A stretch of 64,000 nucleotides of DNA. Origin: Escherichia coli (GTDB lineage: Bacteria; Pseudomonadota; Gammaproteobacteria; Enterobacterales; Enterobacteriaceae). Positions 40,383 to 49,661 of the stretch are shown here, one piece after another; position 1 is the stretch's first letter, and every line of letters begins with the position of its first letter. The notes beneath the pieces are model-generated. The model ran no database searches. It saw only the letters and a program-made list of their open reading frames with translations, and was not told where the DNA came from. The position numbers and the translations under genes are program-made. The DNA lies in the NCBI RefSeq assembly GCF_048403405.1, contig NZ_CP183129.1, one strand, 5' to 3'.

Positions 40383-42071
40383 ATGAGTGGTGAAAAAAAG
40401 GCGAAAGGCTGGCGGTTCTATGGTCTTGTAGGTTTGGGCGCAATAGTACTGCTTTCCGCTGGCGTCTGGGCGTTGCAATATGCTGGCAGTGGGCCAGAAA
40501 AAACGTTGTCGCCGCTGGTGGTGCACAACAATCTGCAAATCGATCTCAATGAGCCGGACCTCTTTCTCGACAGCGACTCTCTGAGCCAGCTTCCCAAAGA
40601 CCTCCTTACCATTCCGTTTCTCCACGATGTTCTGAGTGAAGATTTCGTTTTCTATTATCAGAATCATGCCGATCGTCTGGGCATTGAAGGCAGCATTCGC
40701 CGCATTGTCTATGAACACGATCTCACGCTGAAAGATAAGCTCTTTTCGTCACTCTTAGATCAGCCCGCGCAGGCGGCGCTATGGCACGATAAACAAGGCC
40801 ATCTTTCACATTACATGGTGCTGATCCAGCGCAGTGGTTTAAGCAAACTGCTGGAGCCATTGTTGTTTGCCGCTACCAGCGACAGCCAGTTAAGCAAAAC
40901 GGAAATCAGTAGTATTAAGCTAAATAGTGAAACCATCCCGGTTTATCAGTTGCGCTATAACGGCAATAACGCCCTGATGTTCGCGACTTATCAGGACAAG
41001 ATGCTGGTGTTTTCCAGTACGGATATGCTGTTTAAAGATGACCAGCAGGATACCGAAGCCACGGCGATCGCAAGTGATTTGTTGAGCGGTAAAAAACGCT
41101 GGCAAGCCAGCTTTGGCCTGGAAGAGCGTACTGCCGAAAAAACGCCAGTACGCCAGCGCATCGTGGTCAGCGCCAGGTTGCTGGGGTTTGGCTACCAGCG
41201 ATTAATGCCTTCTTTTGCTGGCGTACGCTTCGAAATGAGCAACGACGGCTGGCATAGCTTTGTGGCGTTAAATGATGAATCCGCAAGCGTAGATGCCAGT
41301 TTCGATTTTACGCCGGTATGGAACAGTATGCCTGCCGGGGCCAGCTTCTGTGTGGCGGTGCCGTATTCGCATGGTATTGCCGAAGAGATGCTTTCGCACA
41401 TCAGCCAGGAAAACGACAAGCTGAACGGGGCGTTAGATGGTGCAGCCGGGCTGTGCTGGTATGAAGACTCAAAATTACAAACCCCGCTGTTTGTCGGTCA
41501 GTTTGATGGCACTGCCGAACAGGCACAACTGCCTGGGAAACTGTTTACGCAAAATATTGGTGCGCACGAAAGCAAAGCGCCAGAAGGTGTTTTGCCGGTA
41601 AACCAGACTCAGCAGGGCGAAGCGCAAATCTGGCGTCGCGAAGTGAGTTCCCGATACGGCCAGTATCCGAAAACACAGGCGGCGCAACCAGATCAACTAA
41701 TGTCGGATTATTTTTTCCGCGTGTCGCTGGCGATGCAAAACAAAACGCTGCTTTTCTCCCTCGATGACACGCTGGTTAATAACGCGCTGCAAACACTGAA
41801 TAAAACCCGCCCGGCAATGGTGGATGTAATACCCACTGACGGCATCGTTCCGCTCTATATCAATCCACAAGGCGTGGCGAAACTGCTGCGTAACGAAACG
41901 CTGACCAGTCTGCCGAAGAATCTCGAACCGGTTTTTTATAACGCCGCACAAACTTTATTAATGCCGAAGCTGGACGCTTTATCTCAACAACCGCGTTATG
42001 TCATGAAGCTGGCACAGATGGAACCCGATGCCGCCTGGCAGTGGCTACCCATAACCTGGCAGCCGCTATGA
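40383..42071 (+). CDS. yfaA: YfaA-like exported protein (DUF2138-type), first gene of alpha2-macroglobulin module
   Basis: N-terminal hydrophobic anchor [22 protein letters not shown]; start uncertain (track 40341). Confidence 0.7.
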
Positions 42072-42691
42072 GGCACGGACTGCTGGCGCTGATTTGCTGG
42101 CTGTGTTGTGTTGTTGCCCATAGCGAAATGCTGAATGTCGAACAGTCGGGGCTGTTTCGCGCCTGGTTTGTGCGTATTGCACAGGAACAGCTCCGACAGG
42201 GGCCAAGTCCGCGCTGGTATCAGCAGGATTGTGCGGGCCTGGTGCGATTTTCGGCGAACGAGGCGCTGAAAGTTCACGACAGCAAATGGCTAAAAAGTAA
42301 CGGCATAGCAAGTCAGTATTTGCCGCCTGAAATGACGCTAACACCTGAACAGCGTCAACTGGCGCAAAACTGGAATCAGGGGAACGGAAAAACCGGCCCC
42401 TATGTGACCGCGATTAATTTGATTCAGTACAACAGCCAGTTCATTGGCCAGGACATAAACCAGGCGCTGCCTGGCGATATGATTTTTTTCGATCAGGGCG
42501 ATGCCCAGCACTTAATGGTCTGGATGGGGCGTTACGTCATCTACCACACCGGAAGCGCCACGAAAACTGACAACGGAATGCGCGCAGTCAGTCTGCAACA
42601 ACTTATGACATGGAAGGACACCCGATGGATACCCAACGATTCCAATCCCAATTTCATTGGCATTTATCGTTTAAATTTTCTGGCGCGATAG
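42068..42691 (+). CDS. yfaT: YfaT-like exported protein (DUF1175-type)
   Basis: ATG overlaps yfaA stop (ATGA); signal-like N-terminus [19 protein letters not shown]. Confidence 0.7.
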
Positions 42692-48880: not shown

Positions 48881-48884
48881 TGCT

Positions 48885-49661
48885 ATGCGAAAGATTTTTC
48901 TTCCGTTGTTACTGGTGGCGCTTTCGCCTGTCGCTCACAGTGAAGGTGTGCAGGAAGTCGAGATTGATGCACCGCTCTCTGGCTGGCATCCGGCAGAGGG
49001 CGAAGATGCCAGTTTTTCACAATCGATCAATTACCCGGCGTCGTCCGTCAACATGGCAGATGATCAAAATATCTCAGCGCAGATCCGCGGCAAAATAAAG
49101 AATTATGCTGCGGCGGGTAAAGTTCAGCAGGGCCGGCTGGTGGTCAACGGTGCCAGTATGCCGCAGAGAATTGAATCCGATGGTTCATTTGCACGCCCTT
49201 ATATTTTTACTGAAGGCAGCAACAGCGTGCAGGTCATCAGCCCGGATGGGCAAAGCCGACAAAAAATGCAGTTTTACTCAACGCCGGGCGCTGGAGCGAT
49301 CCGCGCGCGTTTACGGCTGGTTCTCTCCTGGGACACGGACAATACCGACCTCGACCTTCACGTTGTTACACCTGATGGCGAACACGCCTGGTACGGTAAC
49401 AGCGTGCTGAAAAACAGTGGTGCACTGGATATGGATGTCACGACGGGGTACGGCCCCGAGATTTTCGCCATGCCAGCGCCGATTCACGGACGTTATCAGG
49501 TGTATATCAACTACTATGGCGGACGCAGCGAAACGGAATTGACGACCGCCCAACTGACGCTGATCACCGAGGAAGGATCGGTCAATGAGAAACAGGAAAC
49601 ATTTATTGTACCGATGCGTAATGCTGGCGAGCTGACGCTGGTGAAAAGTTTTGACTGGTGA
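48885..49661 (+). CDS. yfaP: YfaP-like exported protein (DUF2135-type)
   Basis: Signal peptide MRKIFLPLLLVALSPVAHSEG; last gene of the module. Confidence 0.7.
   Translation: MRKIFLPLLLVALSPVAHSEGVQEVEIDAPLSGWHPAEGEDASFSQSINYPASSVNMADDQNISAQIRGKIKNYAAAGKVQQGRLVVNGASMPQRIESDGSFARPYIFTEGSNSVQVISPDGQSRQKMQFYSTPGAGAIRARLRLVLSWDTDNTDLDLHVVTPDGEHAWYGNSVLKNSGALDMDVTTGYGPEIFAMPAPIHGRYQVYINYYGGRSETELTTAQLTLITEEGSVNEKQETFIVPMRNAGELTLVKSFDW

Follow-up and report, generated by a model that had tools for sequence, protein, structure and literature searches.

A probable Escherichia coli counterpart of the type II alpha-2-macroglobulin (Mag) operon, with a break in the yfaS reading frame

Bacterial alpha-2-macroglobulins (A2Ms) come in two classes, which are said to have been first described by Budd et al. 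in 2004 (Genome Biol 5:R38), reportedly with the yfaS cluster of Escherichia coli as an example. The type II members, which lack the thioester, are widespread in Gram-negative bacteria, and both their real targets and their mechanism are still unsettled. Here, we consider the five genes yfaA-yfaT-yfaS-yfaQ-yfaP, which occupy positions 40383-49661 of a 64,000-nucleotide stretch of E. coli DNA (contig NZ_CP183129.1 of assembly GCF_048403405.1). This whole stretch is called the window, and coordinates refer to it unless another sequence is named.

The closest described system is the MagABCDEF operon (PA4492-PA4487) of Pseudomonas aeruginosa. Its macroglobulin, MagD, resides in the periplasm, where MagB tethers it to the inner membrane; in the absence of MagB it is degraded (PMC3735191; PMC5764988), and MagA, MagB, and MagF each bind it 1:1 (PMC5764988). 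Zouhir et al. replaced the MagD bait ANRSERG (residues 847-853) with a tobacco etch virus (TEV) protease site, whereupon cleavage gave fragments of 91 and 74 kDa, with stable non-covalent retention of the protease (PMC5764988). MagC, a DUF1175 protein, is reported to bind peptidoglycan with inactive catalytic residues (PMC10318531, citing Zouhir 2021). Deletion of magD sensitises the cell to VgrG3 and Tae1, two type VI secretion system (T6SS) effectors that target peptidoglycan, and the GacA/Rsm regulon includes the operon (PMC12663445). Deletion of magE alters the forms of MagD, including a higher-mass form.

Orthology with the Mag operon and the trap protein YfaS

The five genes all lie on the plus strand between gyrA and the convergent atoB and are closely packed: yfaA and yfaT overlap by ATGA, the GTG start of yfaQ (47231) abuts the TAA of yfaS (47228-47230), and 4 bp separate the yfaQ stop from yfaP. 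A YfaT-based scan of one genome per species recovered 80 loci, 75 spanning the whole operon and five truncated, from Escherichia, Superficieibacter, Enterobacillus, Yersinia, Edaphovirga, Methylobacter, and many Pseudomonas. The order A-T-S-Q-P holds in 75 of the 75 loci that span the operon, with nothing misordered in the truncated ones, and such a five-gene array goes well beyond what chance would produce. Between E. coli and Pseudomonas, protein identity amounts to 67-77% for YfaT, 52-55% for YfaS, 51-57% for YfaQ, 51-59% for YfaP, and 43-49% for YfaA, and 24-53% of alignment columns are at least 97% conserved from Escherichia to Pseudomonas. The Pseudomonas and Methylobacter loci carry an extra upstream gene, a MagA-like paralogue about 40% identical to YfaP, whereas YfaP is 51-59% identical to the downstream Pseudomonas gene. 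This fits the placement of both MagA and MagF in COG4676 (PMC3735191); the extra paralogue is absent from the Escherichia, Superficieibacter, Enterobacillus, Yersinia alsatica, and Edaphovirga loci inspected.

Profile searches of the accessory proteins agree with this picture. In Pfam, DUF2138 covers the whole length of YfaA (E 7e-288), YfaT matches DUF1175 (2e-58) and, weakly, NLPC_P60 (E 0.0026), YfaQ contains a SpoIID segment (1.4e-5) and two DUF2300 matches, and YfaP matches DUF2135 (6e-17). Against the PDB, YfaT retrieves MagC of P. aeruginosa itself (7BK8; E 7e-103, about 74% identity over 186 residues), while a YfaP/MagA profile gives chance matches only. All five products open with a hydrophobic segment, their N-termini being judged by inspection. 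In YfaA, residues 12-31 form a 20-residue uncharged stretch behind a Lys/Arg-rich start, modelled by AlphaFold2 (AF2) as a helix at 13-34; the other four have signal-peptide-like N-termini (…VAHS/E, …GLANA/DD in YfaS, …PTLA/EE, and …VAHS/EG).

The domain searches on YfaS were made on a repaired protein of 1534 residues, in which the run of six As found in other genomes (A6) was restored. It matches MG2 (8e-19), A2M_BRD (5e-17), A2M (5e-12), and bMG10 (9e-6) in Pfam, and no thioester domain was matched in the Pfam/NCBIfam search. A profile of the YfaS orthologues recovers ECAM/YfhM (E 6e-13) and Sa-A2M from the PDB, together with C5, CD109, and insect TEP1 (E 1e-5 to 1e-10). The motif C.EQ occurs in no frame product of the five genes and not in the repaired YfaS; in the hmmsearch alignment to 5A42, the CLEQ of ECAM stands opposite G1069-V-I-N1072 of YfaS. 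The ECAM segment YPYGCLEQTAS aligns with a family consensus YPYGGVEQTAS, for which E. coli YfaS has PWGGVINT; thus, the thioester Cys is replaced by Gly family-wide, with Escherichia also lacking the Glu-Gln. The bait, in turn, is shared: ANRSERG 847-853 of MagD corresponds to TNRSERR 851-857 of YfaS, its residues vary little or not at all across 27 orthologues (N852, R853, and R856 are strictly invariant), and cleavage at this point should give pieces of about 90 and 75 kDa, in agreement with the 91 and 74 kDa of MagD. At the N-terminus (MDTQRF…), inspection places the hydrophobic core at 18-36. Two other routes for YfaS were considered and rejected. A lipoprotein was suggested by the lipobox-like IAAC25, but a Lys ahead of this Cys25 (K17) falls within what would be the h-region, and the orthologues do not conserve the Cys; Tat export was suggested by the twin Arg of the consensus MDTRR… in many orthologues, but the E. 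coli sequence reads QR and its hydrophobic core begins only some 15-25 residues further on.

Judged by sequence, MagB is YfaA, MagC is YfaT, MagD is YfaS, MagE is YfaQ, and MagF is YfaP, with the E. coli locus appearing as a five-gene enterobacterial form without MagA. Hence, we assign the locus with fair confidence to the type II (thioester-less) Mag operon, as its orthologue in E. coli; the system is an already described one. Every tested feature of that operon was found except a sixth gene and, in the window, an intact macroglobulin open reading frame (ORF). The hallmarks of the type I (ECAM/YfhM) class are missing: there is no CXEQ, inspection shows no valid lipobox, and the neighbours are yfaT and yfaQ rather than pbpC. 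The first-pass annotation of this DNA, made from the letters alone, had described five co-directional genes with the three junctions given above, each of which is exact by coordinates, and an exported or anchored N-terminus in every product, in line with the hydrophobic segments in all five. The likeness to the Pseudomonas magABCDEF operon that it suggested turns out to be true orthology, with 43-77% identity and strict synteny, although the likeness falls one short in gene number, the E. coli locus having five genes and not six as in Pseudomonas. The profile searches it proposed link all five products to Mag families (DUF2138, DUF1175, A2M, DUF2300/SpoIID, and DUF2135), and its view of the accessory functions as not established has been overtaken by the literature, which gives an anchor and stabiliser (MagB), MagD binders (MagA and MagF), a peptidoglycan binder (MagC), an effect of magE on MagD, the protection that magD affords against T6SS effectors, and an envelope and cell-width phenotype for a K-12 yfaQ deletion (PMC12282094). 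Overall, the locus is a conserved system, already known and still mechanistically unsettled.

The start, the reading frame, and the state of yfaS

The start of yfaS (ATG 42625) is embedded 67 nt inside yfaT and is the sole start that gives YfaS a signal peptide. An ATG at -67 is present in 80 of 81 sequences, the preceding 14-mer TGGAAGGACACCCG is identical in 74 of the 81, and the yfaT/yfaS overlap is -67 in 73 of 75 loci. About 45 nt at this junction are nearly invariant across genomes of very different GC content, including third-codon positions of yfaT and the rare codons CGA and ATA. This conservation points to a constraint at the nucleotide level, most simply that of an embedded ribosome-binding site and start codon. 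The RefSeq model from the Prokaryotic Genome Annotation Pipeline (PGAP) instead begins yfaS at GTG 42715, giving 1504 residues against 1534 from ATG 42625, and no signal peptide; PGAP start models of the E. coli macroglobulin are probably mis-annotated systematically. In the Pseudomonas loci, a second in-frame ATG overlaps the magC stop and yields the signal peptide of 26 residues with which MagD is annotated. In Escherichia and Superficieibacter this second ATG has been lost (it is ATA), so Escherichia has to use the ATG at -67. The 21-residue extension that the upstream start would provide in Pseudomonas might be linked to the higher-mass MagD form of the magE deletion. Placing the true yfaS start and ribosome-binding site inside yfaT could sharpen experiments on the family.

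In the window, the ORF opened by this ATG ends at TGA 43462-43464 after 279 residues, and 1257 codons remain in the +1 frame up to 47230; the frame is split because an extra A turns A6 into a run of seven (A7). In the nearest complete genome, CFSAN061763 (NZ_CP042899), the run is A6 and yfaS is intact, and the extra A is one of only two differences in 11.8 kb. The run is A6 in all 11 E. coli genomes inspected, and an 81-nt query across the A7 run had an exact match in none of the 474 genomes it reached, more divergent genomes lying outside its reach. We take the A7 to be probably a real mutation private to this strain. A sequencing or assembly error at the homopolymer, with a real A6 and a functional module, is a possible but rather unlikely alternative: a single-base length difference in an A-run is the commonest type of assembly error, and both the A6 of so near-identical a genome and the absence of A7 from every other inspected genome are what such an error would leave, but homopolymer slippage is also the commonest real mutation. 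Moreover, when the 55 stop-to-stop ORFs of at least 150 residues shared with the reference were compared, yfaS alone was truncated and the other 54 were whole, so the sequence is not generally error-prone or ridden with indels. Rescue of the A7 allele by programmed frameshifting or transcriptional slippage was considered and set aside, since a net +1 shift would be required and a run of seven As is short for slippage to be efficient; it would be leaky at best.

If the A7 is taken as a real private mutation, the break leaves the window without an intact, translatable macroglobulin gene, and the module as read here is probably non-functional, the trap most likely not being made. The genes yfaA and yfaT are intact. 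Since yfaQ begins at the yfaS stop, a premature stop 3.77 kb upstream could lower YfaQ and YfaP, and these translationally coupled genes may be under-expressed here. The first-pass annotation had placed a very large A2M-family protein at the centre of the module: the family identity is borne out by the macroglobulin-like (MG), bait-region, A2M, and MG10 domains, but not the single ORF, which A7 stops after 279 residues. The frameshift of yfaS was hinted at only in its call for mutants of a strain 'with an intact yfaS'. The absence of a C-x-E-Q thioester that it noted was confirmed in all frame products and in the repaired protein, with GVIN opposite the CLEQ of ECAM.

Inactivation of yfaS is not peculiar to this strain. 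A K-12 derivative has an internal stop in the gene. The yfaS lesions of K-12, of O157:H7, and of the present window are independent of one another, and the yfaQ of O157:H7 also has a stop. Separately, the yfaA orthologue of Escherichia albertii NBRC 107761 (positions 8307-10001 of that locus) contains an internal stop and is possibly another pseudogenised member of the operon. These three yfaS lesions, the O157:H7 yfaQ stop, and the lack of yfaQ in some 2% of E. coli genomes and in certain sequence types (PMC12282094) might suggest that the E. coli locus is a decaying relic without a current role, conserved by phylogenetic inertia. We regard this as very unlikely indeed: the yfaS region was found in 5393 of 5426 complete genomes, and yfaS is intact in nine of the 11 inspected genomes, from diverse lineages (eight of these being further diverse genomes). 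The column conservation from Escherichia to Pseudomonas given above also speaks against decay, and purifying selection is implied by the way in which the embedded start site is conserved at the nucleotide level. For practical purposes, the message is that the window contains the well-known E. coli copy of the system with an inactivating lesion, and the natural yfaS nulls of K-12, O157:H7, and the present strain could be used as ready-made controls.

Accessory proteins and the proposed mechanism

Of the four accessory modules, three appear to be directed at peptidoglycan, and they have invariant residues of the catalytic type. In YfaT, Cys54, His147, and His159 are invariant in 81 sequences (QQDC54AGLV, QH147LMVWMG, and YH159TG). 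YfaQ combines a beta-lactamase/penicillin-binding protein (PBP)-like domain, a SpoIID-like domain, and an HExxH motif. In its confident AF2 model (predicted local distance difference test, pLDDT, 85; predicted template-modelling score, pTM, 0.82), three sets of residues invariant across 46 orthologues fall where catalytic residues would be expected and recall the PBP and SpoIID families: S60-L-W-K63 at the beginning of the helix 59-73, K195-T-W on the strand 192-200 (the third PBP motif thus being KTW, not KTG), and E334, which lines up with Glu in the EEY…SEM motif of SpoIID. The helix 512-526 carries an invariant H520-E-Y-L-H524; three strands come before it, and the helix after it bears the invariant E536 and E540. 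This modelled C-terminal topology resembles that of a minimal zincin. Neither a PDB search with a profile of the last 110 residues, which returned only chance hits to angiogenin, nor the top fold matches of the model gave a zincin match, so that sequence and fold lend a zincin identity no support. PADLOC returned nothing meaningful on YfaQ. As a separate observation, YfaQ contains two full-length, high-scoring DUF2300 matches, at residues 84-205 (47480-47845) and 412-532 (48464-48826). An internal duplication was rejected, with an hhalign probability of 0.5% and a Smith-Waterman score equal to the shuffle mean.

Two separate literatures treat this one protein, as MagE in Pseudomonas and, in E. 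coli, as the peptidoglycan-related factor YfaQ. A 2025 paper describes YfaQ as bipartite, with a transpeptidase-like and a SpoIID-like part (PMC12282094); it nowhere mentions macroglobulins or Mag, and the Mag papers nowhere mention SpoIID.

By analogy with the Mag system, we propose that YfaS/MagD would be exported to the periplasm, where YfaA/MagB would tether it to the inner membrane through its single-pass anchor and stabilise it, with YfaP/MagF also binding it. An incoming hydrolase would then cut the bait (residues 847-866 or thereabouts), and the macroglobulin would close round it and hold it non-covalently. YfaT (NlpC/P60-like) and YfaQ (PBP-like plus SpoIID-like) may serve as peptidoglycan-recognising modules through which the trap is positioned or regulated at the wall. 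In sum, the sacculus and periplasm would be shielded from foreign enzymes, for example, peptidoglycan-targeting T6SS effectors. We infer that the E. coli proteins assemble and act in this Mag-type manner.

The same accessory proteins permit a different account, which we hold to be unlikely, in which the module is a machine for peptidoglycan remodelling or repair: YfaT and YfaQ would be conditionally active enzymes, by analogy with SpoIIP/SpoIID, and the macroglobulin a scaffold or regulator rather than a trap. The catalytic-type residues just listed for YfaT (C54/H147/H159) and YfaQ (S60/K63, K195-T196, and E334), which are invariant from Escherichia to Pseudomonas, are consistent with this, as are the fold matches of YfaQ. 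The main support comes from the K-12 yfaQ deletion, whose cells are wider and whose profile clusters with mepK, mepS, and nlpI despite the yfaS pseudogene of that strain (PMC12282094); further support is that the magD deletion phenotype concerns peptidoglycan-targeting effectors and not proteases (PMC12663445). However, MagC is reported to bind peptidoglycan with inactive catalytic residues and DUF1175 is classed as inactive (PMC10318531), the third PBP motif of YfaQ is KTW instead of KTG, enzymatic activity has been reported for no member, and MagD traps a protease in vitro (PMC5764988).

A further proposal, decidedly improbable in our estimate, casts YfaQ/MagE as a soluble BlaR1-like sensor-protease, whose PBP-like and SpoIID-like domains would sense peptidoglycan that is damaged or not cross-linked and whose invariant C-terminal HExxH module would cut the YfaS/MagD bait, the trap thus being armed by its partner after wall injury and not by the attacking enzyme. 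It would explain the conserved bait, the protection from muramidase and amidase effectors that cannot cut the bait, and the effect of magE on the MagD forms.

Several points weigh against the reading that we prefer, that of a Mag-type trap disabled in this strain. Trapping by MagD has been shown only with the engineered TEV bait and was incomplete, and the mechanism of the E. coli complex is carried over from the Pseudomonas experiments. It is unexplained how a protease trap would stop a muramidase-type effector such as VgrG3. Broad-spectrum macroglobulins have hypervariable baits, whereas that of YfaS is strongly conserved. In P. aeruginosa, MagE was recovered in the cytoplasmic fraction, which is at odds with a role at the periplasmic peptidoglycan. 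YfaQ has at least some function independent of the trap, because the K-12 yfaQ phenotype arises in a strain in which yfaS is already a pseudogene. Finally, the lesion itself is a single homopolymer indel, which could still be a sequencing error.

Features of the window and comparison with known systems

Table 1. Coordinates of the operon, its neighbours, and the sites discussed in the text (window numbering)
Feature	Position	Strand	Description
gyrA	37607-40234	+	Directly upstream neighbour of the operon
Leader hairpin of yfaA, CACA[AGGAA]UGUG	40367-40379	+	Minimum free energy fold; candidate CsrA/RsmA-type site
yfaA	40383-42071	+	562 residues; predicted MagB orthologue; transmembrane anchor at residues ~12-34 and periplasmic DUF2138 body
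yfaT	42068-42691	+	207 residues; predicted MagC orthologue; secreted, NlpC/P60-like (DUF1175), peptidoglycan-binding family
yfaS ribosome-binding site (TGGAAGGACACCCG) and ATG	42611-42627	+	Embedded in yfaT
yfaS 5' fragment	42625-43464	+	38-residue signal peptide and first MG domains; stops early, 279 residues
A7 homopolymer	43450-43456	+	One A more than A6; splits yfaS
yfaS 3' part	43457-47230	+	1257 codons, +1 frame; MG2, bait-region domain, A2M, vestigial thioester domain, MG10
yfaS bait region	45164-45223	+	Residues ~847-866 of the repaired YfaS; matches the MagD bait
Vestigial thioester site PWGGVINT	45821-45844	+	YfaS residues 1066-1073; aligned to PYGCLEQT of ECAM
yfaQ	47231-48880	+	549 residues, GTG start; predicted MagE orthologue; signal peptide
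yfaP	48885-49661	+	258 residues; predicted MagF orthologue (DUF2135), secreted
GC-rich hairpin	49701-49722	.	Between the convergent yfaP and atoB; from the terminator scan
atoB	49735-50919	-	Downstream neighbour, convergent with yfaP

The flanks of the operon (Table 1) offer few regulatory signals. Two hairpins follow gyrA ahead of the operon, the Rfam scan of 39.5-50.5 kb found no RNA families, and a scan for consensus sigma-70 promoters found none upstream of yfaA. The Shine-Dalgarno GGA of yfaA is presented in the loop of the leader hairpin, 4 nt before ATG 40383, and AAGGA/AGGGA-type motifs, A(A/G)GGA, precede the first gene in related loci. The magA leader of P. aeruginosa is a reported RsmA target (PMC3735191). 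The yfaA hairpin is a candidate site of the CsrA/RsmA type, with which an ordinary Shine-Dalgarno sequence is equally compatible. Downstream, the terminator scan lists the hairpin after yfaP on the minus (atoB) strand only; because a T-run follows it on the plus strand too, we read it as a probable bidirectional terminator closing the operon.

Elsewhere in the window, comparison with CFSAN061763 revealed several differences. Similarity to that genome is mosaic: the first ~37.8 kb (1-37800) diverge by about 0.4-2%, and 37900-64000 are nearly identical, with six differences in 26 kb, which suggests a recombination boundary near yfaL-ubiG-gyrA. Two of the six are in gyrA codons 83 and 87 (37853-37867), which read Leu83 and Asn87 against Ser83 and Asp87 in CFSAN061763; S83L with D87N is the classical double mutation of fluoroquinolone resistance. 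At 25468-26235, there is a 768-bp insertion with IS1-type terminal inverted repeats (GGTAATGACTCCAACTTATTGAT… and …ATCAGTAAGTTGGCAGCATCACC) and a 9-bp direct duplication, AAGCCACCG; it is apparently an IS1 copy inside a LysR-family regulator gene that was already a pseudogene in the reference. Near 24620, in the interval from glpQ to the LysR-family gene, the window lacks about 1.7 kb of CFSAN061763 (positions 1635250-1636960 of that record, which include a 'frameshifted hypothetical protein'). The yfaL/ehaC autotransporter has a 24-bp in-frame insertion (TCCCGATCCTGATCCCACGCCGGA) at 35711-35734, within its Pro/Asp-rich adhesin repeat.

Two known systems parallel YfaQ in part. The SpoIID/LytB lytic transglycosylases, which accompany SpoIIP in the engulfment machine of sporulation, match YfaQ in sequence over only about 60 residues, and in YfaQ the domain is fused to a PBP-like one in an organism that does not sporulate. 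BlaR1/MecR1 join a class D beta-lactamase-like sensor domain to an M56 zinc protease. In contrast, YfaQ is soluble and secreted rather than polytopic, has the SpoIID-like domain between its PBP-like domain and HExxH, and carries an HExxH without detectable similarity to any solved zincin; the parallel would be one of function and not of membership.

The macroglobulins themselves are homologous over a wider range. Like eukaryotic alpha-2-macroglobulin, C3-C5, CD109, and the insect TEPs, YfaS is built of MG domains, and in those proteins bait cleavage triggers entrapment. The E. coli protein differs in having no thioester and a conserved rather than hypervariable bait and, going by the Mag analogy, would be monomeric and act within a membrane-tethered complex. 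Closer at hand are the type I proteins ECAM/YfhM of E. coli and Sa-A2M of Salmonella, encoded beside pbpC. Like YfaS, these are periplasmic and of multi-MG architecture (MG2, bait-region, A2M, a thioester-domain-like helical domain, and MG10), and they are proposed to guard the envelope together with a peptidoglycan enzyme. Unlike YfaS, they have a CLEQ thioester and trap covalently, are lipoproteins with a lipobox of their own, and partner PBP1c rather than DUF2138, DUF1175, YfaQ, and DUF2135 proteins.

The P. aeruginosa Mag system is the nearest of all. It differs from the E. coli locus in the first gene magA, a MagF paralogue absent from E. coli and the other Enterobacterales sampled, and in the second in-frame ATG at the magC stop, which E. 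coli does without. The thioester site of E. coli has also diverged further (GVIN against GVEQ), and the MagD orthologue is frameshifted in the window. In all else that was compared the two are alike: the same proteins in the same order, with 43-77% identity, a thioester-less macroglobulin whose NRSER bait is conserved, four proteins with signal peptides and a MagB-type one with a transmembrane anchor, and a yfaS/magD start region lying inside the 3' end of yfaT/magC.

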